Below, piece by piece: positions 12,755-25,575 of a stretch of 32,000 bases of DNA; the first letter of the stretch is position 1; every line of letters begins with the position of its first letter. The translations under genes and the position numbers were made by a program. This stretch comes from Halopiger xanaduensis SH-6 (GTDB taxonomy: Archaea > Halobacteriota > Halobacteria > Halobacteriales > Natrialbaceae). Below the pieces are notes generated by a model. It had not been told where the DNA came from. It searched no databases and saw nothing but the letters and a program-made list of their open reading frames with translations. Location: assembly GCF_000217715.1 (NCBI RefSeq), contig NC_015666.1, forward strand, positions 290,270-322,269. The letters run 5' to 3'.

Positions 12755-15673
12755 ATGACGAACTCTACCCAGTTCTCTCCGGGGCAGCGGGTAATTCTCA
12801 ACGGAGCGCCGGCTGAAGTCATCAAAACCCAAACGGTCGGAGAGATCGAGTACCTAAGAGCATACATCGACGGCGAGGGCGCCAAGACGGTCTGTCTCGA
12901 CGATGTCGAGATTCAACCGCATCGATCCGGAATCGAGGAACTGTCCAACCAGCAAATCGATGACTTTCACCCGGATCATGACGCTGTGTCCGCGCAGTGG
13001 TTCGACCTCCACACGCAGGCGACGAAACTCAAGCTCGCCCACGAGCAGGGGCAGCTCCTGAGCATTTCGAACTCGCTCGTTCGACTGGAGCCCTACCAGC
13101 TCGACGCCGTGAACTGGGTGATGCAGAAACTCCGGCAGCGAGCGCTCATCGGCGACGACGTCGGGCTCGGGAAAACGATAGAGGCGGGGCTCATCCTCAA
13201 GGAACTCGCTGCCCGGAATCGCGCCGACCGCGTCCTGTTCGTCGTTCCCGCTCACCTCCAGAAGAAGTGGATCCGGGATATGGATCGCTTCTTCGACGTC
13301 GACCTCACCGTTGCAGACCGGGCATGGGTCGAAGGTGAGCGACGACGGCTCGGCGAGGAGGCCAACATCTGGAATCAAGACCAGCAACAGCTCGTCACCA
13401 GCATGGCGTTCCTGCGACAGGACGAGTTCCGGCCTGCACTCCGGGACGCGTTCTGGGACGTCGTCGTGGTCGACGAGGCACACAAGGCCGCAAAGCGTGG
13501 AGACTCGCCGAGCAAGACGGCAAACATGGTCGATACCGTCACGGGGAACTCCGACTCGCTGCTGCTTCTCAGCGCGACGCCGCACGACGGGAAAGGCGAG
13601 GCGTTCCGCTCACTCGTCGAGTACATCGACCCGTTCCTTGTCGCCGAGAACCGGGAACTCTCACAGGAGACAGTCGACCGCGTAATGATCCGGCGCGGAA
13701 AAACTGACATCTACGACGAGGATGGTGAACGCGTCTTCCCAGACCGGGAGGTCAACTCGGTATCCGTCTCGATGACGCACGACGAGCGGCAGTTCTACCG
13801 CGCGGTCACCGATTACGTCAAAAACGTCTACAACCGCTCGGAGAAGCTGAACGAACCTGCGGTCGGGTTCGCGATGGCGCTCATGCAGAAACGGCTGGTG
13901 AGCAGCGTCGGCGCGATTCACGCGACGCTCCGCCGACGACTGGATGACCTCCTCGACGAGGAGGCGGAAACGGACGGGCTCTCTGAGGAAGCACGAGCCT
14001 ATCTCGACGGCGAGGATCTGGACGAGGACGACAAGCAACACGCGGAAGACGAGATTGCTGGCCTGACCGTCACCAGCACCGACGAACAGCTCCAAGAGGA
14101 GATCGATACGCTCCGCGATCTCGTCTCGCTGGCCGAGGATTTGCCGGTCGACTCTAAGGCCCAGAAGGTCAGACGGTTCATCTCCCAACTCCTCGAGGAA
14201 CAACCGGACGAGAAACTCCTGTTGTTCACGGAGTACCGCGATACGCTCGACTACCTACTCGAGTACGTGCAGGACGAGCCGTGGGCGGACGAGATTCTCG
14301 TGATTCACGGTGACGTGGACAAGGAAGAGCGGGCGCGGATCGAAGACGAGTTCAACCACGGCCAGCCGCGGCTCCTGTTCGCGACTGACGCAGCGAGCGA
14401 GGGGATCGACCTCCAGCACAGCTGCCACATCATGGCCAACTACGAGCTTCCGTGGAACCCGAACCGCCTCGAACAGCGGATCGGCCGCATCCATCGCTAC
14501 GGACAGGAGGAGGAGGTCAAGGTCTGGAACTTCCTCTTCGACGACACCCGCGAGAGCGAGATCTTCGAGATGCTCCAAACCAAGGTCGAGGAGATCCGCT
14601 CCCAGCTCGGAAACACGGCGGACGTGCTCGGCATCCTCGACGACATCGACGTGGACTCGCTCATCATGGAGTCCATCGAGAACGACGAACCGCCGAGTGC
14701 GACCAAAGAGGAACTCGAGGAGATGATCGAGGAGCGTCAGCGGACGCTCGAGGAGTGGTACGAGCGGAGCCTCGTCGATACGAGCACGTTCGACGCGGAG
14801 AGCCGTCGGCAGATTCAGGAGGTCGTCGACGAGTCAGAGGACGTCTACGGAAGCGAGGGAGACATTCGCGAGTTCTTCGAGCGAGCAGTCGAAGCCTTCG
14901 GAGGCGAATTCGAGAAGCGCGGCACCAACCTCTATCAAGCCGAACTACCGGACGGGATCAATTCACCCGGCCAAGACGCGACGTTCGGCCCGTTCACGTT
15001 CGATCGCGACTTCGCGATGGATCACGAGGACATCACCTACCTCGCTCCCGATACGGACGTCCTGCAACGACTCATGGCACGCGTGTTGGAGGACGAGCGT
15101 GGAGAGGTCGGACTCAAACTGCTTCCGTTCGTCGACACTCCGGGGATCACCTACAACTATCGCGTGGCGTTCGAGGACGGCACCGGCGACGTGATTCGCG
15201 AGGAGACCATCCCCGTCTTCGTGGATGCTGCGCAAGAGGATGCTCAGCAGGCGCTTGGTGAACGTGTCGTCGAGGGCGACTCGGTAGCAGCAAAGCCCGA
15301 CGTCGACGACCTTCGGACGGTTCTCGACGCTCAATCCGACTTACGGACGGCTGCCGATCGATACGTGAGCGTGCGGGTTAACGAGATCAAGAACCATCTT
15401 CAGGAGAAGCGTCACGAGGAGACCGCTCGAGAGCTGGAGAATCTCGAGGAATACGCACAGGCAGAACGAGAACGGATCGAGTCCTTCATCGAGGAGTACG
15501 AGCGCAAAGCCGACGCCGGCTCGGATATGGACATCGCGATCCGTGGTCAACAGGAGCGGCTCGAACAGCTTGAGGACAGAATCGAAAAGCGTCGCGAAGA
15601 ACTCCGGCGTCGAGAGCAGATTATCTCCCTTGCGCCCGAGGTCGAGAACTACTGTCTCACGCTACCTCTTTAG
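12755..15673 (+). CDS. SNF2-family DEAH-box helicase/translocase (BrxHII-like), 972 aa
   Basis: Motif I DDVGLGKTIEAG, motif II VVVDEAHKA, motif III LLLSATPHDG. Helicase-C block LLFATDAASEGIDLQ...NYELPWNPNRLEQRIGRIHRYGQ. N-terminal FSPGQRVILNG...EVIKT is Tudor/SH3-like as in RapA-type SNF2 proteins. The C-terminal ~330 aa are unassigned and end in a coiled coil. Confidence 0.85.
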   Translation: MTNSTQFSPGQRVILNGAPAEVIKTQTVGEIEYLRAYIDGEGAKTVCLDDVEIQPHRSGIEELSNQQIDDFHPDHDAVSAQWFDLHTQATKLKLAHEQGQLLSISNSLVRLEPYQLDAVNWVMQKLRQRALIGDDVGLGKTIEAGLILKELAARNRADRVLFVVPAHLQKKWIRDMDRFFDVDLTVADRAWVEGERRRLGEEANIWNQDQQQLVTSMAFLRQDEFRPALRDAFWDVVVVDEAHKAAKRGDSPSKTANMVDTVTGNSDSLLLLSATPHDGKGEAFRSLVEYIDPFLVAENRELSQETVDRVMIRRGKTDIYDEDGERVFPDREVNSVSVSMTHDERQFYRAVTDYVKNVYNRSEKLNEPAVGFAMALMQKRLVSSVGAIHATLRRRLDDLLDEEAETDGLSEEARAYLDGEDLDEDDKQHAEDEIAGLTVTSTDEQLQEEIDTLRDLVSLAEDLPVDSKAQKVRRFISQLLEEQPDEKLLLFTEYRDTLDYLLEYVQDEPWADEILVIHGDVDKEERARIEDEFNHGQPRLLFATDAASEGIDLQHSCHIMANYELPWNPNRLEQRIGRIHRYGQEEEVKVWNFLFDDTRESEIFEMLQTKVEEIRSQLGNTADVLGILDDIDVDSLIMESIENDEPPSATKEELEEMIEERQRTLEEWYERSLVDTSTFDAESRRQIQEVVDESEDVYGSEGDIREFFERAVEAFGGEFEKRGTNLYQAELPDGINSPGQDATFGPFTFDRDFAMDHEDITYLAPDTDVLQRLMARVLEDERGEVGLKLLPFVDTPGITYNYRVAFEDGTGDVIREETIPVFVDAAQEDAQQALGERVVEGDSVAAKPDVDDLRTVLDAQSDLRTAADRYVSVRVNEIKNHLQEKRHEETARELENLEEYAQAERERIESFIEEYERKADAGSDMDIAIRGQQERLEQLEDRIEKRREELRRREQIISLAPEVENYCLTLPL

Positions 15674-19101: not shown

Positions 19102-19350
19102 CTAATCCTTCTTTTCCGGTGATTTGAGCCTCCACTCCCCATCCGTAAGGGAGATCGATGCTTGCTCTCCGTTTCCGTTACCGACGACCGTGACTGTCTG
19201 TCCCTCGACAGCGGTGATGTAAACCCGATGTTCTGACCCCTCAACGGCGAGTTCGACGTGCTCTCCCTCGGTGAGCTGTTCGCGGTCAACTTCGTGAATG
19301 CTCGGCGTCACTACCAACGCGGTCGAGCAGCATCGGTCAAAAGGATCCAC
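19102..19350 (-). CDS. Small beta-rich hypothetical protein (82 aa, or 70 aa from GTG at 19311)
   Basis: Acidic composition (EVDREQLTEGEHVELAVEGSEHRVYITAVEGQTVTVVGNG). Divergent from the zinc-ribbon gene pair. No motif recognised. Confidence 0.35.
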   Translation of the reverse strand: MDPFDRCCSTALVVTPSIHEVDREQLTEGEHVELAVEGSEHRVYITAVEGQTVTVVGNGNGEQASISLTDGEWRLKSPEKKD

Positions 19351-19406: not shown

Positions 19407-19640
19407 GTGTCGACGATAGTGATGGCGACGATCACAGATGATTGCGACGCGTGCGGTACGGAACAGGAGTGGACAGTCGAACGCAACCTCCGCCACAACA
19501 GCTGCTCCGAATGTGGGATGCGGCATATGATCTCCCTTTCTGAAAGGGAAGCGTTCGAACATAAGCAGAAGAGTCAGTCCGAGCAGCAGGAGATGTTCGA
19601 CAAACTGCGGAAGTGGGACGAAGAGGAGGTGGGCGTGTAA
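19407..19640 (+). CDS. Small zinc-ribbon protein (77 aa from GTG; 72 aa from ATG at 19422)
   Basis: Two CxxC pairs: DDCDACGTEQ ... NSCSECGMRH. The C-terminal helix is charged. The stop overlaps the next start (TAATG at 19638-19642). Confidence 0.5.
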   Translation: MSTIVMATITDDCDACGTEQEWTVERNLRHNSCSECGMRHMISLSEREAFEHKQKSQSEQQEMFDKLRKWDEEEVGV

Positions 19641-19801
19641 TGCCGGTCGTCAAAACGGAGTGCGATCGACGCGACCGCGGCGGCGAAATCACCTACACGG
19701 GCGTCGATCCCGATGGGGAACTCAGAAACTGCCCTGACTGTGGGTGCGAGGTGGCAGTCGACCCAGAAGCCGGTGAGGCGCTTCACGTCGAGAAAGAGTA
19801 A
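19640..19801 (+). CDS. Small zinc-ribbon-like protein, 53 aa
   Basis: ATG at 19640 shares a base with the upstream TAA. MPVVKTECDRRDRGGEITYTG...NCPDCGCEV contains CxxC plus additional Cys. Acidic. Confidence 0.45.
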   Translation: MPVVKTECDRRDRGGEITYTGVDPDGELRNCPDCGCEVAVDPEAGEALHVEKE

Positions 19802-19848
19802 CTGTACAAGCTACTCACAACGTCTGATAGGGGAAATTCTCCGTCTCT

Positions 19849-20013
19849 CTATTCATCCAGAATCCGGAATGCCTCGCGGATGTGCTCGTGAGCCTGCTTG
19901 ACTTCCTCGATGGCATCACCATCCATGTCCTGTTCCTCCGCCTCCGCGACCCAGCCTTTGCATCCACTCACGGACATCGCCAGCTTCGCCTTCAGCCGTT
20001 CTTCATCCTCCAT
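19849..20013 (-). CDS. Small acidic helical protein, 54 aa
   Basis: MEDEERLKAKLAMSVSGCKGWVAEAEEQDMDGDAIEEVKQAHEHIREAFRILDE. I preferred the internal ATG over the 79-aa extension, whose N-terminus is basic and atypical for this window. Confidence 0.3.
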   Translation of the reverse strand: MEDEERLKAKLAMSVSGCKGWVAEAEEQDMDGDAIEEVKQAHEHIREAFRILDE

Positions 20014-20263
20014 AGCGCCGGCATTCTCACCCCTATTACCGGATAAATGTCGGCACGTGGGTCGTCTACTTTTTACCACTAGCTCCATGACGACGTGTCG
20101 ATAATCGAAAGGGGATGGCTCCCCCAGAACCTAGGTGGTCGACTCCACCTGCCCACCGGCGGGTTCTATCCCGCCAGTCTATCAATATGTTCCCTCCCAC
20201 CGTAAAACCAGCGCAGAAGCCGCGAAAATGCCCCTAGCTATCATTTAGGACGTCAAAGCGACT

Positions 20264-21232
20264 ATGCCGGTGGCGGCCGCGGATACTAGTATGCTCGACG
20301 ATCCTCCTGACATCGGCCCTGACGAAAAGTGGCCCGACGACTGGTCTCGAGAGGAACGCGTCGAAGCAGTCGATGACACACTACATGAGCCTCGGAATGT
20401 CGACTGGATCGCCGACGAGGCTGACGTCAACCCCGAGTTTGCTCGCTCGATGCTCGCCGAACTGGCCAAGTCAGATGACGCGTTCGTTCGCGTCGACGAG
20501 GGATACTGCTGGGACGAACAAAAACTGCGCCTGCAGAAGCGCGAACGTCTCGCAGAGAAACCAGCCGCTGAACTGCGCGAGGAACTGAACCGAATCAACG
20601 ACGAGATCGATGAGTGGCGCGAAGAGCACGACGCCGACAGCCCCGACGAGGTCGATGACTATCGAGTCGCGTATGACTGGCGTCGCTCTCGCCACCTGCA
20701 GAGGATGATCCGCGGTCTGCTCGCAGACGACGCGTTCCTCGAGGCCGTTGGCGCCGTTGCGTGCGGCTATGAGTCGCTGCCCGAAGCCGCGGATCGCCGA
20801 GGAGTCGACGCAGAAGATGTCGCCCGCGCACTCAGCCGCCACCAGTACCGCGAGGATTACTCGTGTCGACTCTGGGCAGATCGGCGATCCGACGGCAAGG
20901 ACGACATCGGCGAGCAATCAGACTACTCAGACACGCGGTGGTCGGACGACAGCACGCTTAACGTGCGGTCAGGGGAGGAGATTGCGCGAGCTAACGGCGT
21001 TGACGTTGAGGTCGTAGAGGAGTTCATCGAGGCGATGTCGGAGCAGGAGCAGGCAATAATCGATGACCGTATCGAGGAGATTGAAGACGACACTCGCCGC
21101 TACTCAACCGAAGATGTCGCTGACGATCTCGGGATAGACCTCGGCGATCGCGTCACGGAACTCGAGAACGAGGAAGGACTCGAAGACATCGACGACCTTC
21201 TCGATGATCTCCCGGACGAGGAGCAAGATTGA
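20264..21232 (+). CDS. Highly acidic hypothetical protein with a possible N-terminal wHTH, 322 aa
   Basis: Long ORF with an extreme D/E content. The N-terminal VDWIADEADVNPEFARSMLAELAKSDDAFVRVDEGY fits a helix-turn-helix plus wing pattern. Followed directly by the ORB-like repeat region. Confidence 0.6.
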   Translation: MPVAAADTSMLDDPPDIGPDEKWPDDWSREERVEAVDDTLHEPRNVDWIADEADVNPEFARSMLAELAKSDDAFVRVDEGYCWDEQKLRLQKRERLAEKPAAELREELNRINDEIDEWREEHDADSPDEVDDYRVAYDWRRSRHLQRMIRGLLADDAFLEAVGAVACGYESLPEAADRRGVDAEDVARALSRHQYREDYSCRLWADRRSDGKDDIGEQSDYSDTRWSDDSTLNVRSGEEIARANGVDVEVVEEFIEAMSEQEQAIIDDRIEEIEDDTRRYSTEDVADDLGIDLGDRVTELENEEGLEDIDDLLDDLPDEEQD

Positions 21233-21276
21233 ATCGGACACGATGACTGTTCGCTGCTGGCGAAGACGCGATACCC

Positions 21277-21551
21277 CACACCCCCTTCAGTTCTGATGTA
21301 AACCGCCCCAGTGAACGACGATCTGCGATTATGGTACATACCCCCCGGTTCCAATGAAGGAGCCGGGGGGACACCCCACCTCTTGAATGAAAACCAGCAG
21401 ATAGAGAACCTCACACCCCCTCGACTTCCGATGTAAAATCCCCCTACGGAACGTCGATCTCCGGCCACGCGCACGCACCCCTCGGTTCCGATGAACGGAT
21501 TAGAGGGAGACACCCCACGTCTGGAATGTAAAACCAGCAGATACGGAACCT
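21277..21551. repeat. Two degenerate tandem units (~135 and ~140 bp), each carrying three ORB-like C/G-string elements
   Basis: Unit A is 21277-21411 and unit B is 21412-21551. They align by eye through conserved blocks: CACACCCCC, GATGTAAA, GAACG.CGATCT, GGTTCC.ATGAA...GGG, GACACCCCAC, GAATG(T)AAAACCAGCAGATA.(G)GAACCT. They lie in the convergent intergenic gap between 20264-21232 (+) and 21560-22321 (-). Confidence 0.75.
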
Positions 21552-21559
21552 ACAAGCCG

Positions 21560-22321
21560 TCAATCCTTTCCCCACATCCACTCTCGGAACTTCCGACTGA
21601 TCTTCTCGTGCCGCTTCTCGTCTGGGCCCTTCCTCGCAACAACGCCGCGAATTTCGCCCCCCACGTCCATCCACGGCAATCGCTGTCCGTTGTCGGGGTT
21701 CCGTACGTTATCAATCCAACTACCGACTGACCATGCCCACGCCTCCTCCGCGATCTTCTTCGTCTTCTTCGACCGCTCCTCGTTCGCGTTGACCTTGTCG
21801 CTCAACTCCTTGACTTCCTCACGAAGTTCCTTGTTCTCCTCTTCCAACTCTTTCACGCGGTTACGCCACTGTCCGAACTCGGACTTGAGGTTACCACGCT
21901 CATCTTCTGCCTCATCTTCGACAGCCTCGATTGATTCCTTGAGTTCGGATTGGTTGTCCCGAATCTCGTCGAGGAGATCGCGGACAAGACCCATTTCGTC
22001 ATTCATCTCGCGGGTGGCATCGAGTACCTCTTCTCGGAGCGCGTAATGGGCGAGGTCACTCCACTGGTCGCTTACGTACCGGTTCCCCTCTGTTGTTAGC
22101 TTGAATACTCGAACGTCATTACCTGCGTGCGGGCGTGTTCCACACTGCTTGACGAGCCCTGCGGGTGCGAGCCACTCGTCGATTCTGTGCTTGATGAGGC
22201 GCGGCTTCCCGCCGGTCATCTCTTTCAGCTCTGTCGTGCTGCACCGACCACGTTTGAACAGCGCAGTAAGTGTCTTCTCAGCGAGGAGATCCATTTTCTC
22301 CGGTTCCTCGTACCTCGCCAT
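21560..22321 (-). CDS. Winged-HTH DNA-binding protein with a central coiled coil and a Trp-rich C-terminus, 253 aa
   Basis: N-terminal LTALFKRGRCSTTELKEMTGGKPRLIKHRIDEWLAPAGLVKQ...VRVFKLTTEGNRY fits a wHTH pattern. Heptad-rich region: LLDEIRDNQSELKESIEAVEDE...VKELEEENKELREEVKELSDKV. An AT-rich stretch (GTTGTTTATTTATCAATAATG, ~22328-22348) sits immediately upstream. Confidence 0.75.
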   Translation of the reverse strand: MARYEEPEKMDLLAEKTLTALFKRGRCSTTELKEMTGGKPRLIKHRIDEWLAPAGLVKQCGTRPHAGNDVRVFKLTTEGNRYVSDQWSDLAHYALREEVLDATREMNDEMGLVRDLLDEIRDNQSELKESIEAVEDEAEDERGNLKSEFGQWRNRVKELEEENKELREEVKELSDKVNANEERSKKTKKIAEEAWAWSVGSWIDNVRNPDNGQRLPWMDVGGEIRGVVARKGPDEKRHEKISRKFREWMWGKD

Positions 22322-22683
22322 ATTCGTGTTGTTTATTTATCAATAATGCGGTAAGAACCTCTCGGAACAGGGGTGGGAATGTTCGGCCATAGGCGGAATA
22401 TTTCGGGGGGATATTCTGAGGGTATTCGGCCTAACTGGAACGCCGTCCGAATACCGCATGCGGGTACCCCTTCCAGTAGTTGCTCCCGGGACGCATGCCC
22501 CACCGAAGCGACAAGGGGCGCTCAGGCGCCGCGCCCCTACGAACCCCCGGCTCCAACGTGTTGGGGAGTTGTGGATTCCAGCGAGGAGAGCTTTTGAGCA
22601 GACCTGAAAGTTTCCGGAGTACAGACCCGCAACAATGAGAGGATGCATTCCTTGGCGGAAGAGCTTCCCCGCTACGAAAGCGA

Positions 22684-22788
22684 GTTTCATCGGAACTGAG
22701 GGGGTGGGAGAAGTGTGTGGACTCCACCCGAACTAAGGGGGTCTCCATCGACTTCGGCGGTTTCGAGTTTTCATTCAAGAGGTGGGGT
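22684..22788. repeat. Cluster of ORB-like G-string elements, inverted relative to those at 21277-21551; includes one arm of a perfect 22-bp inverted repeat
   Basis: GTTTTCATTCAAGAGGTGGGGT (22767-22788) is the exact reverse complement of ACCCCACCTCTTGAATGAAAAC (21373-21394). GTTTCATCGGAACTGAGGGGGTGGG (22684-22708) is close to the reverse complement of the element at 21412-21440. Further copies: CGAACTAAGGGGGTC (~22729-22743) and CGGAACAGGGGTGGG (22363-22377). Confidence 0.65.
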
Positions 22789-22953
22789 ATCCCCCACGTG
22801 GCAGCAAGATTACTCCACTAGTAATGTGTAGTCTCTCCTCGAGCTACTCCTTCCCATATTCAACCCCTAAGTGAGGTACGTAGCGTCGGTGAGGCGAATG
22901 ATCTCGACTATGGATGGTACGCAAGTCGCAAAAGAAGCGTAAGTAACGTAGCA

Positions 22954-25575
22954 GTGAAATTAGCTATACTCAACCTTTTTGAGATATACGCCAAGAGTAC
23001 CAGTGTGTCATTCAAACGGTCTCGTTCTATCGACGCTCTCTATGACGCAGTCGAGGATTACGATCTGGTGTTGACGACTGATGCACCACTCAGTCATGCC
23101 CTGAATCGCCGACTCGATCGTCCACACCTCGGTCGCTTCGCGGCCACCCCACGGATGCTCGCGTCGGGTGAATTTGACCCGCAAGACGATCGAACTCTGT
23201 TTTTGCGCCTCATCGACGAAACGGATCTGAGTTACAAGCACGCCGCCTATCTCCTCGAGAACATCCTCGGTTGTTGGGAGGAAACTGGAGACCTGCGTGC
23301 GATTCTCGACTACGACCGATTCGATAGCGAGGAGACGCGTCAAGCTATTTCGGTGATCGAGTCCGCCGAGAGTTCCCATCGAGACCTCGCCGAGTATCGC
23401 ATCGAGGATGGAACGTCGGTCGCGCTCATCGGCGAGAAGCAGTTCACGGCGCTCGACAAGTCGGTGCTTCCGGACTCCTACGACGCAATCGATCCGTTTG
23501 CTGACGACGGGTTCGACCTGCCGGAGTTCCACGTCTTCGACGGCCCGACCGCGATCGTCGACGCCGTCGTTGATAACGTCTCGCCGGACACCGCCGACGA
23601 CGTCGCGATCATTATGGACAGCGGCGGGGAGTATCCCGCCCTCGTCGAATCCGCGTTCGAGGCGGCTGGCATCCCCTTCTACGGCGGGCCGGGATTCACC
23701 GACGACGAGACTATCCGCACGTACCTCCGGTTGCTGCGCACGGCGCACAGCGATTCCCGGGCACGCGTCAGCGACGTTCGACCGATCCTCACCCATCTCG
23801 GTCGCCCGCCATCCGTCGTCGACGACGAGAAGTTCCTCCACGAACTCAACCACGAGGAACTCCGCCCTCTGCAGGAGTTCTGTCGCACCATCGACGACTA
23901 CACGTTCGGTGAGACGGTGGCCACGTTCGAAGACTGGAGCGGGAAGACGCTGGACGCGTTCCACGAGGAACTGCGGGAACTCGGACTACACGATGATCGG
24001 GTGACGAGCGACTCGATCGATGATCTCGAGTTCTACCTCCAGTCGTTCGACGTGCCCGTCGATCGCGACGACTCGGGCGTACTGCTGGCCGATGCCACCG
24101 CCGCGGCCTACGTCGACCGTCCGGTCGTGTTCTACCTCGGGATGGACGTGGACTGGACGCATCGGATTCTCGACCGCCCGTGGATCGACGCCGACGCGAA
24201 GGACGAGCAGTACCTTCGACAGTTCCAAATTCTTCTCCAGAACGGTCGCGATCAGTACTATCTGGTACAGGAGACGAGCGCCGGCCAGCCCGTTACACCG
24301 TGTCTCTACTTCCACGATCTCCTCGACGACGACTTCGAGACGATCGGAGACCTGCCGCATATCTCCCACAGTCGCCTCAGTAGTGACGGCGACACTGGCT
24401 TCGAGAAGGAGGATGTAGATGTCGCGCCAAGCGAGATCGATGTGGTCAGCCAGTCGAGCCTGAACACCTTCATCAACTGCCCGCGGGACTACTACTTCGA
24501 CAGGATCGTCGACAACCCTGACCGTGATTACTTCCAGAAGGGCAATCTCTTCCACGACTACGCTGAGTTCTACGTCAATCACCCCGACGTGGTCGAGGGT
24601 GCCGACCGTTCGGAGCTGGTCGATCTGATGCTGGCGGAGATGCGACCATACGTCCCCGATGTCGAACTGGAACCGCTGGAGACCGAGTTCGAAATCGGCC
24701 TCGACACGATCGAGCAGTTCGTCGCCGCCGATCCGCCTACCGACCGGGAGTACAGCCACTACGAACGACAGGAGGGGGACAACTTCTTCGCCGACCACTT
24801 CGAGAAGTCGATTGACTCCCCCATCACCGAGCGCTGGTTCGAGAATCCAAACCTCGGCGGCAAGGGGAAGGTCGACCTGATACACGCACCGGAAACGCTT
24901 CTCGACTACAAGAGCGGCGGCCGCAAGTCAGCGTCCAAGGTCGTCTCACGGTCGGACATCGAGGAAATCAGCGACGAGCCCGACTTCCAAGCGCTGCTCT
25001 ACCTCGCCCACCATCGACAGGAGCACCCAGATGAGCGTCTCGAGTTCGTCTTCTTCCACTTTCTGGAGTTGGTTGACGACGTCGTTGCCGGGGAGCCGGA
25101 TCTCGAGGATGCACTCGTCCGGGTCACCTACCACCCGATGCCGTTCAGGACGTATGCTGGCAATCGCGAGGCGTTCGATGCGCTCTGTGATGGCGTCGCC
25201 GAGAGCAACGACCGGCGGAAGACGCTGGAGCGGATGGGGTACGACGCGTATGCATCGTTCTTCGAGCGACACGACTTCCCGGAGACTGACGACACCGACG
25301 AGCTGCTCGCAACCGACTTCGCGGCCCGCTTCACCGAGTACGCGAAAGCGGAGGTCGGAGACTACGTCTACGTCGAAGACGGGACGGAAAGCGCGCTCAA
25401 GAAGCTCGTGCGGATTCGCGGTCGCAATTACTTCGAAGGCGAGGTCGACGCGTTCGAGGACTTCCTCAACGCACAGATCGACCGGATAAACCAGTATCGC
25501 ACGTCGCAGTTCCCCGTCGAGGAACCGAACTTCGACCGAGTCACCCACCGCGACCTGATCCGAACCGATGACTGA
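22954..25575 (+). CDS. AddB-like protein: degenerate helicase-like scaffold with a C-terminal RecB-family PD-(D/E)xK nuclease domain, 873 aa
   Basis: Nuclease-domain signatures: SQSSLNTFINCPRDYYF, GNLFHDYAE, GKVDLIHAPETLLDYKSGG (D...DYK), QALLYL (QxxxY). No Walker A in the N-terminal two-thirds. The stop overlaps the start of the downstream helicase (ATGACTGA, 25568-25575). Start uncertain: GTG at 22954, or GTG at 23005 preceded by a TATA-like CTTTTTGAGATATA ~26 nt upstream. Confidence 0.7.
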   Translation: MKLAILNLFEIYAKSTSVSFKRSRSIDALYDAVEDYDLVLTTDAPLSHALNRRLDRPHLGRFAATPRMLASGEFDPQDDRTLFLRLIDETDLSYKHAAYLLENILGCWEETGDLRAILDYDRFDSEETRQAISVIESAESSHRDLAEYRIEDGTSVALIGEKQFTALDKSVLPDSYDAIDPFADDGFDLPEFHVFDGPTAIVDAVVDNVSPDTADDVAIIMDSGGEYPALVESAFEAAGIPFYGGPGFTDDETIRTYLRLLRTAHSDSRARVSDVRPILTHLGRPPSVVDDEKFLHELNHEELRPLQEFCRTIDDYTFGETVATFEDWSGKTLDAFHEELRELGLHDDRVTSDSIDDLEFYLQSFDVPVDRDDSGVLLADATAAAYVDRPVVFYLGMDVDWTHRILDRPWIDADAKDEQYLRQFQILLQNGRDQYYLVQETSAGQPVTPCLYFHDLLDDDFETIGDLPHISHSRLSSDGDTGFEKEDVDVAPSEIDVVSQSSLNTFINCPRDYYFDRIVDNPDRDYFQKGNLFHDYAEFYVNHPDVVEGADRSELVDLMLAEMRPYVPDVELEPLETEFEIGLDTIEQFVAADPPTDREYSHYERQEGDNFFADHFEKSIDSPITERWFENPNLGGKGKVDLIHAPETLLDYKSGGRKSASKVVSRSDIEEISDEPDFQALLYLAHHRQEHPDERLEFVFFHFLELVDDVVAGEPDLEDALVRVTYHPMPFRTYAGNREAFDALCDGVAESNDRRKTLERMGYDAYASFFERHDFPETDDTDELLATDFAARFTEYAKAEVGDYVYVEDGTESALKKLVRIRGRNYFEGEVDAFEDFLNAQIDRINQYRTSQFPVEEPNFDRVTHRDLIRTDD

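Follow-up and report, generated by a model that had tools for sequence, protein, structure and literature searches.

Inverted arrays of ORB-like elements around a winged-helix gene in a haloarchaeal cassette: a candidate origin or Orc-binding region without an adjacent initiator gene

Haloarchaeal replication origins are currently predicted by searching beside orc1/cdc6 genes. The locus described here raises the question of what arrays of origin boxes do when the gene between them does not encode an initiator. It lies in the window, the whole stretch of 32,000 nucleotides analysed, on the 3.67-Mb main chromosome of Halopiger xanaduensis SH-6. The arrays flank the gene of P0001, a 253-aa winged-helix (wHTH) and long coiled-coil protein (21560-22321, minus strand). 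The locus belongs to a well-defined and apparently horizontally spreading class of origin-box arrays, with no initiator neighbour found at any of the loci compared. Alongside the arrays come a constant set of tiny genes and a DNA-binding protein that is exchangeable.

Ten ORB-like elements are arranged on the two sides of the 253-aa gene, six at 21273-21551 in two tandem units of 135/140 bp and four, inverted, at 22355-22795. Tandem unit 1 (21273-21411, also bounded from 21277, minus strand) holds elements at 21273-21309, 21340-21360 and 21366-21394, and tandem unit 2 (21412-21551, minus strand) holds elements at 21408-21444, 21476-21497 and 21505-21532. On the other side, the promoter-proximal site R1 (22355-22381, plus strand) is followed by the upstream array (22684-22795, plus strand), with elements at 22684-22710, 22722-22743 and 22767-22795. 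The G-strings of the tandem units and of the upstream array are directed away from the gene. The two units are 74-80% alike, and the repeat families D1, D4 and D6 show spacings of 135/139/140. Elements of the tandem units have the form C-string ... TTCCGATG(T)AAA, or the variant CCCCAC.TCTTGAATG(T)AAAA. The class consensus is (T)TT(T/A)CATCGGAA(C/G), 2-4 bases, then GGGG(G)TG, with a variant consensus TTTTCATTCAAGA(G/C)-N-TGGGGTGTCCCC. All ten elements fit (T)TTNCAT(C/T)(G/C)(G/A)AA(C/G/A), 1-5 nt, GGGG(G)T, that is, a mini-ORB-like core, a spacer and a G-string.

An exact 22-bp inverted repeat across the gene had been described in a sequence-only reading of this DNA. It is confirmed and can be lengthened to 29 nt at 97% (21366-21394 against 22767-22795), and a second pair, 21478-21495 against 22686-22703, matches over 18 nt at 94%. 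The two tandem units, which that reading placed at 21277-21411 and 21412-21551, are present as well, as are the three elements of C-string and core in each and the inverted copies beyond the gene. A weaker copy claimed at 20202-20212 does not hold up: only 11-14 nt agree there with sequence flanking the variant element (AAAACCAGC), and the site is left out of the element count because it has no mini-ORB and no G-string. The clustering is not random. The class regular expression gives 9 matches in 21233-22953 (1.7 kb), where 2000 first-order Markov simulations gave 0.035 on average (maximum 2); there are none in the rest of the window and 44 in the whole genome (4.36 Mb). Tandem unit 1 is kept in two other genomes (G345 and G399), and the three elements of the upstream array occur in the same order in loci L016, L017, L260, L261 and L270. 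Related metagenome loci have one unit only, so the tandem duplication is secondary.

Judged by their sequence, the repeats are ORB-type elements that form a separate class. They share the layout of mini-ORB, spacer and G-string with the ORBs beside the eight orc1/cdc6 genes of the genome, examples of which are TTTCACTCTGAACGAGGGGTGTGGG at 1.99 Mb and GTTTACACTTCGAACACGGGGGGT on C3; the orc-adjacent ORBs of G345 read AACGACGGAAACGTGGGGTG. About 10 of the 14 core positions agree with the published euryarchaeal mini-ORB consensus, GTTCCAGTGGAAAC-AAA-GGGGG (PMC1868953). The sequence-only reading had called the repeats ORB-like and proposed this comparison, which bears it out. The inverted arrangement with outward G-strings is that of oriC1 of the same genome. 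ORBs on both sides of a gene are also seen around two of its orc genes and are known in published haloarchaeal origins (PMC3528665). The locus thus shares with orc1/cdc6-adjacent origins, such as Haloferax volcanii oriC1 and Haloarcula hispanica oriC2-cdc6E (Norais et al. 2007; Wu et al. 2012/2014), the core with G-string in multiple copies, the inverted arrangement in both gene-flanking intergenic regions and a G+C content below that of the chromosome. It differs from them in that the flanked gene encodes a wHTH/coiled-coil protein rather than an AAA+ initiator, in that the long AT-rich unwinding element is missing and in that the core (CATCGGAAC) is unlike every orc-adjacent class seen in the analysis. 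A cognate cis Orc elsewhere was considered and rejected; the class is absent from the eight orc-adjacent ORB sets here and from those of G345.

Another difference from such origins is the absence of an initiator gene. No Cdc6_C or AAA+ initiator is encoded within the window, as the sequence-only reading had observed, and the closest orc1/cdc6 match lies ~420 kb from the locus. There is no orc1/cdc6 on the G345 or G399 contigs and none in the fetched flanks of ~15 loci, and neither these loci nor the 401 sampled Halobacteria showed the repeat class next to an orc gene. Haloarchaeal origins have been reported to depend on their adjacent cdc6 (PMC3936714; PMC4595724), and the lack of orc in the flanks argues against an origin here. 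A precedent that favours an origin is oriC10 of Natrinema sp. J7, which has 7 ORBs and no adjacent cdc6; its 2-kb fragment replicates autonomously and, as pFJ6, is stably kept at about one copy (PMC5350488). The predicted oriC10 and oriC3 of that strain (Archaea 2017, PMC5350488) resemble the present locus in having ORB clusters (7 and 3) away from any cdc6, low G+C (53-56%) and a place on the chromosome of a member of the same family-level group. They differ in that their description mentions no accompanying wHTH or zinc-ribbon genes, and the likeness is one of published description.

Our preferred reading, a tentative one, makes the inverted arrays together an ORB-type origin without orc, or failing that an array to which Orc1/Cdc6 would bind; a conserved initiator paralogue of the host would act on it in trans. 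The candidate trans initiators are Orc1 and a near-universal orphan Orc-like protein (C1:889829-890986). They are the only Orc proteins common to G000 and G345 (73% and 77% for Orc1 and the orphan, respectively), and 119 of 121 sampled genomes carry the orphan. The 253-aa protein would be an exchangeable, autoregulated accessory, predicted to bind R1 and to act in control, bridging or partition. Between Natrialbales-like, Haloferax, Halorussus and other genomes the array elements hardly vary, although the adjacent protein differs, which points to a conserved trans factor. An origin is further supported by the layout common to the orc-adjacent ORBs of the host, by the inverted outward arrays and by an integrase beside the cassette in two loci.

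The repeat class travels with a ~4-kb cassette (~19.1-22.8 kb) of four small genes, a DUF7342 gene and the wHTH/coiled-coil gene, and comparison across loci indicates that the repeats are the conserved non-coding part of this horizontally mobile unit. The first small gene (82 aa, 19105-19350, minus strand) is matched by tblastn in L213 (71%), L016 and L261, where the gene order is the same, and its product gave no family match. Zn77, a 77-aa zinc-ribbon mini-protein (19407-19640, plus strand), has homologues that adjoin arrays in L016, L212, L213, L214, L232 and L261; a family search gave only a weak, sub-threshold Lar/zinc-ribbon match. Coupled to it is Zn62, a second zinc-ribbon mini-protein of 62 aa (19613-19801, plus strand), with homologues of 63-94% in L213, L214, L232 and L261 that directly abut an ORB-like element in two loci. 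The fourth small gene (79 aa, 19849-20088, minus strand) keeps its order in L213 (58%), L016, L232 and L261 (94%). The 322-aa acidic protein (20264-21232, plus strand) carries the DUF7342 domain (PF24033, E=1.6e-19), and its gene adjoins the array in L016 (44% over part), L260, L261, L265 and L270.

P0001 itself, in its AlphaFold model, has a wHTH at residues 12-85 and a single helix at 87-207. Its best Foldseek matches are the MarR family, TFE-alpha and the centromere-binding protein AspA, and the wHTH fold reaches TM-scores, normalised by target length, of 0.65-0.73 against MarR proteins and pNOB8 AspA. A cut-down Orc1/Cdc6 winged helix was rejected as its identity, with no Pfam or NCBIfam match, no PDB sequence match and no Orc winged helix in the top 50 Foldseek matches. 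The family is tiny, with 13 clusters.

This fold bears on the main rival, a somewhat less likely alternative, in which the arrays are predicted sites for a cassette-encoded protein, either the wHTH/coiled-coil protein or a zinc-ribbon mini-protein, and are centromere-, iteron- or silencing-like, with a convergent likeness to ORBs. Such a protein would spread or bridge between the inverted clusters and control genes of the cassette or island, or segregate an excised form. A gene for a wHTH and coiled-coil protein stands beside the array in five independent contexts (the window, L016, L212, L213 and L214), its fold is that of MarR and AspA, and iterons and centromeres typically show direct tandem repeats next to a DNA-binding-protein gene. 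Of the 401 Halobacteria sampled, 6 have clusters of the repeat class, and Zn77 is present in just these 6, a co-occurrence (6/6) that fits equally well with a cassette-encoded binder and with the preferred reading. However, the same elements, near-identical, flank wHTH/coiled-coil genes that are not detectably homologous (hhalign probabilities 5-66%) and, in one locus, a nuclease-like gene, and P0001 homologues at 48-51% identity and one at 80% occur without arrays. The co-variation of site and protein expected of an iteron or centromere array is not seen. A mini-ORB-like core with a G-string at canonical spacing is also unexpected for a non-Orc binder. Plasmid centromere and iteron arrays with a winged-helix binder, such as AspA of Sulfolobus pNOB8, likewise pair a small wHTH gene of AspA-like fold with repeated sites. 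The present arrays differ from them in their ORB architecture and in their partners, since a domain search of the cassette genes found no ParA/ParB-like, Rep or other partner gene.

R1 is the exception. This partly palindromic site (GAACCTCTCGGAACAGGGGTGGGAATG), which contains CTCGGAAC and GGGG, accompanies all P0001 homologues of 59-100% identity, also those that lack arrays (L018 and L019), and a different repeat replaces it at the same place in the homologues of 48-51% identity. It alone among the sites co-diverges with the protein, a point in favour of a cassette-encoded binder, and we regard it as the probable operator of the 253-aa protein. The proposal of the sequence-only reading that the repeats are binding sites of the flanked wHTH protein remains likely for R1, which follows the protein, but is weakened for the arrays.

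The AT-rich stretch noted earlier at 22328-22348 (minus strand) exists, with 77% A+T over 30 bp, but it is probably the promoter of the 253-aa gene: relative to the start codon (ATG) it sits at -11 to -26, the expected place of TATA/BRE in a leaderless gene. When 80-120 bp are considered, most bona fide origins of the host genome are richer in A+T. The space between the arrays is filled by a gene and this short stretch (~20-30 bp) is its sole AT-rich part, which counts against an origin. The lack of a clear unwinding element, together with the ORB architecture, would suit arrays that are predicted to bind Orc1/Cdc6 without firing, as a titration sink or decoy that damps a host origin or soaks up a viral or plasmid initiator. 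The high copy number (10 elements, with a three-element unit secondarily duplicated) and the neighbourhood of BREX, Kiwa, AddAB-like, McrBC and HerA/NurA genes also suit such a role. An ORB-rich negative regulator has been described downstream of H. hispanica oriC2-cdc6E (Wu et al. 2014, PMC3936714); the ORB cluster there is not itself an initiation site and has been proposed to titrate an initiator by binding. That region, however, adjoins its cognate cdc6E and origin, while here neither is linked. We consider a sink improbable: no cognate Orc with the repeat class was found, cellular or viral, and the cassette neighbours differ in every locus, with no genetic link to a particular defence system. 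If the arrays do only bind Orc, they would be a natural initiator sink inside defence islands.

Several haloarchaeal genera carry the cassette, in defence islands or in elements with an integrase. The sequence-only reading had suggested that the repeats may mark a plasmid or an integrated element; the plasmid is contradicted by the location on the main chromosome, and what stands is that this is horizontally moving DNA. Searches of PLSDB plasmids, INPHARED phages and IMG/VR did not reveal the cassette, the plasmid and phage collections giving no match to its DNA or its proteins. Evidence of the cassette as a free replicon is thus lacking, and this too argues against an origin. A contig scan with TTCATCGGAACN{2,4}GGGG was unspecific, since the matches listed were mainly single chance bacterial ones, the Haloferax mucosum locus L131 alone being useful; in IMG/VR the matches listed were chance singles only. 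A stricter 20-nt pattern had no match in IMG/VR and gave, in metagenomes, four further cassette copies and chance singles.

Mobility might also mean that the inverted elements are the ends of a mobile cassette or its recombination sites, either terminal inverted repeats or sites of a small tyrosine recombinase (Haloferax-type loci). This would explain the different genes between the elements. Inverted pairs 1.1-1.2 kb apart surround different genes in L213 and L234, and a 203-aa tyrosine-recombinase-like gene lies <1 kb from the elements in L214 and L232. We nevertheless find this very unlikely. The window encodes no transposase and no integrase (in the host genome the closest integrase homologues lie at 1.85 and 2.24 Mb), mobile-element ends do not typically consist of 3-6 copies with G-strings, and a reading of the outer borders, cursory rather than rigorous, showed no target-site duplication. 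Both repeat-bearing intergenic regions are single-copy in the genome, and a MITE or insertion sequence was rejected on this ground; the enclosed gene is that of the wHTH/coiled-coil protein.

A bolder form of the orc-less origin, and a long shot, would see the cassette as a satellite replicon module complete in itself. Its ORB-type origin without an initiator gene would use a conserved host Orc paralogue or the Orc of an infecting virus or plasmid and amplify or mobilise the defence island, with the wHTH protein as a specificity or immunity switch; or the small cassette proteins would themselves be a novel initiator, one that recognises ORB-like DNA independently of Orc. It would then be a haloarchaeal counterpart of phage-inducible chromosomal islands. 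Returning to the preferred reading, if the arrays fire, origin and initiator would be separable and origins could move between genera as small cassettes, which would account for the unexplained cdc6-less ARS of Natrinema sp. J7. Whether they fire or only bind, the locus offers a 1.7-kb fragment and a 29-bp probe with which to ask which Orc paralogue, the universal orphan included, reads which DNA.

Between R1 and the upstream array lies a spacer of ~300 bp with G+C-rich hairpins (22382-22683). A structured RNA was rejected here, as the RNAalifold covariation term is unfavourable on both strands (with one divergent sequence only, and low power), and a known RNA family was rejected with no Rfam match in 19800-23200. 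The indels of the spacer are not multiples of three. It is conserved at ~97% in G345, G399 and L017 and is still alignable in Halorussus L016.

The gene of P0001, a 253-aa winged-helix/coiled-coil protein (21560-22321, minus strand), is bracketed by repeat elements on both sides. On one side, 21273-21411 and 21412-21551 form two tandem units (spacings 135-140 bp) of three elements each; on the other, four elements run in the opposite orientation at 22355-22795. Reading of the sequence from 19900 to 23200 and a repeat finder agree on this arrangement, which the sequence-only reading had proposed. Its exact 22-bp inverted repeat is also present and belongs to a longer match of 29 nt at 97% (21366-21394 and 22767-22795); the copy that it claimed at 20202-20212 is a short flank match only and not an element. 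With the G-run placed 3', the ten elements read (T)TT(T/A)CAT(C/T)(G/C)(G/A)AA(C/G), 1-5 nt, GGGG(G)TG, and one sub-type is TTTTCATTCAAGAGGTGGGGTGTCCCC. All six elements to the left lie on the minus strand and all four to the right on the plus strand, so the T-rich ends face the P0001 gene and the G-strings point outward. A pattern for the class makes 9 matches in 21233-22953 against a mean of 0.035 expected from 2000 Markov simulations, zero elsewhere in the window and 44 in the whole genome. Both array-bearing intergenic regions are single-copy in this genome. A lone well-formed element of the class, TTTTCATCGGAACCAAGGGGGCAGG, is found about 7.5 kb beyond the window (C1:329786-329815), where it precedes a small ribbon-helix-helix-like gene by ~60 bp, and the same is seen at G345:C4:231880 in a second genome.

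The arrays fall within the sequence definition of origin recognition boxes (ORBs). They share the mini-ORB/G-string build with the ORB consensus, GTTCCAGTGGAAAC-AAA-GGGGG with the halophile G-string (PMC1868953; PMC3528665), and with repeats beside the orc1/cdc6 genes of H. xanaduensis itself. Examples include GTTCCACCTGAAACGAAGGGGTGGGGGG at oriC1 and TATACAGCGGCAACGAGGGGTGTG at 1.35 Mb; the orc genes at 1.99 Mb and on contig C3 are flanked on either side by TTTCACTCTGAACGAGGGGTGTGGG and GTTTACACTTCGAACACGGGGGGT, respectively. The arrays are oriented like the ORBs of oriC1, where the one to the left is a minus-strand element and those to the right are plus-strand elements. Because the build matches both the orc-adjacent repeats and the published consensus, the resemblance is, at the level of sequence, specific rather than loose. 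The core class CATCGGAAC is not found beside any orc gene of H. xanaduensis or G345.

The arrays do not qualify as a classical orc-adjacent origin, because they lack both an orc gene next to them and a clear unwinding element. Of the eight Cdc6_C-positive orc1/cdc6 genes in the genome, the closest lies ~420 kb away. The AT-rich stretch at 22328-22348, listed earlier among the origin-like features, is on a par with the genome's bona fide origins over 30-50 bp and weaker over 80-120 bp; it sits at -11 to -26 from the P0001 ATG, the expected position of a promoter. In Natrinema sp. J7, 2 of 12 predicted origins, oriC3 (3 ORBs) and oriC10 (7 ORBs, 52.7% G+C), have no neighboring cdc6 gene, and a 2-kb piece of oriC10, devoid of cdc6, is capable of stable autonomous replication (PMC5350488). 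The arrays resemble oriC10 in having ORBs without an adjacent cdc6, whereas the origins of Haloarcula hispanica and Haloferax mediterranei are reported to need theirs (PMC3936714, abstract; PMC4595724). We tentatively read the locus as an orc-less ORB-type origin or an Orc-binding array that would be served in trans; the wHTH/coiled-coil protein would be its exchangeable and autoregulated accessory. An ORB-rich region is also able to act as a negative, initiator-titrating element (PMC3936714, abstract); the arrays would then be an initiator sink or decoy, which we regard as improbable.

The locus lies on the main chromosome C1 (3.67 Mb, 66% G+C; there are three contigs besides), and G+C in the window ranges from 49 to 67%. 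By domain annotation the window is a defence island, with Kiwa KwaA/KwaB, a BREX methylase and PglZ, a SNF2 helicase, an RdfA paralogue and an AddAB-like pair. It holds no tRNA gene, and an Rfam search around the arrays and P0001 region gives zero matches. The entire island is 88-95% identical in G345, a genome of another family, and in G399, with the arrays conserved in both; such identity across families means that it moved horizontally. There is no orc gene on the island contigs of these two genomes or in the fetched flanks of any compared locus. Between H. xanaduensis and G399, homology is lost for ~150 bp (22816-22967), precisely from the upstream array to the AddB-like gene, and then resumes; in at least one lineage, therefore, a recombination boundary coincides with the array's outer edge.

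The P0001 homologue of Halorussus sp. AFM4 (L016) is 59% identical and has neighbors different from those in the window (McrBC, a ParB-methylase and HerA/NurA); the same elements flank its gene on both sides in unchanged orientation. Metagenome loci L017, L260, L261, L265 and L270 show the same flanking with one three-element unit downstream, and the two units of the window are therefore a secondary duplication. At L018 and L019 (homologue 80% identical), R1, the promoter-proximal ORB-like site at 22355-22381, is the only element kept. L004-L006 (48-51% homologues) have no arrays; their upstream region is otherwise similar, with a different short repeat at the place of R1. Since R1 stays with the 80% homologue and is replaced in the 48-51% homologues, it appears to behave like P0001's own operator. 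Between R1 and the upstream array, a non-coding spacer of 300 bp (22382-22683) is conserved above the flanking gene and is alignable even at 59% protein identity. It has many G+C-rich hairpins, e.g. GGCGCTCAGGCGCC, and indel lengths that are not multiples of three, with no Rfam match or covariation support.

The class pattern CATCGGAAS-N2-4-GGGG was scanned in 401 Halobacteria, where clusters, among the matches listed, occur only in G000 (H. xanaduensis), G345, G399, G088 (Haloferax mucosum), G143 and G278. Beyond the island genomes, the gene adjacent to the cluster again encodes a winged-helix plus coiled-coil protein, with no detectable homology to P0001. In H. mucosum, a textbook origin-like structure (L131:4800-5220; contig_7, G088:C7 ~12800-13220) lies 400 bp downstream of this gene. 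Its ~50-nt AT-rich core has a C-string block on one side and a G-string block on the other, both inside inverted ~25-nt repeats TCTTCTATATCGTGAAAAGGTGTGG, with one extra direct copy. In G327, an inverted element pair (L234:4494-5716, on G327:C3) brackets not a wHTH gene but one for a 371-aa nuclease-like protein, and a HerA/DUF87-like ATPase gene comes next; the final 40 residues of the nuclease-like protein are found again in the G345 island.

The elements are near-invariant among genera, and CATCGGAAGTCGAGGGGGTG is common to G000, G345, G399, G278 and G088. Such constancy, next to a wHTH protein that varies beyond recognition, favors a conserved factor that would read the elements. G345 has three Orc-like genes only, and its orc-adjacent ORBs belong to other classes. 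It shares only two Orc paralogues with H. xanaduensis, Orc1 (73% identity) and an orphan Orc-like protein (C1:889829-890986, 77% identity), and these would be the obvious candidates for binding in trans. The orphan gene occurs once per genome in 119 of the 121 Halobacteria sampled, with identities of 67-95%, and no ORB-like repeats lie within 2 kb of it; it is predicted to be a universal 'orphan' initiator paralogue. It lies outside the window and was missed by the Cdc6_C Pfam search.

P0001 has no relative in the PDB by sequence and no informative domain in Pfam or NCBIfam, where its matches are coiled-coil noise. Its AlphaFold model (mean pLDDT 73) predicts a winged helix-turn-helix at residues 12-85, a single helix spanning residues 87-207 and a low-confidence tail. 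Foldseek matches of the model are MarR-family regulators, TFE-alpha and the pNOB8 centromere-binding protein AspA, with no Orc1/Cdc6 in the best 50. The family is tiny (13 clusters in 5.8 billion proteins) and includes proteins of Natrinema pallidum and Halorussus sp. AFM4.

The repeats seen earlier around the wHTH gene are confirmed, and the unit is wider than two repeat clusters around one gene: it is a ~4-kb mobile cassette. Homologues of the small upstream genes of the window (an 82-aa gene, zinc-ribbon 77-aa and 62-aa genes, a 79-aa gene and partly DUF7342) stand beside arrays, with order kept, in L213, L016 and L261, and partial sets are found in L212, L214 and L232. The 77-aa zinc-ribbon protein occurs in exactly the same 6 of 401 genomes as the listed element clusters. 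A conserved cassette protein, such as one of the zinc-ribbon pair, may be the alternative binder, and the array would then be read by cassette proteins as a centromere, iteron or silencing site; we find this somewhat unlikely. The small cassette proteins match no described family, and nothing matching the cassette is found in PLSDB, INPHARED or IMG/VR. The 77-aa protein (19407-19640) resembles the restriction-alleviation protein Lar in a weak match below threshold (PF14354, E=0.003), which may reflect the zinc ribbon alone and is curious within a restriction/BREX island.

A 203-aa tyrosine-recombinase-like gene adjoins the module in two Haloferax-type loci, and no homologue of it is found near the window in H. 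xanaduensis. That the elements are themselves recombination or terminal sites seems very improbable. The two recombinase-like genes (L214:15679-16290 and L232:3318-3929) are unusually short and 85% identical in two genera. They are linked with zinc-ribbon genes and single ORB-like elements, and the combination looks like a small integrated element.
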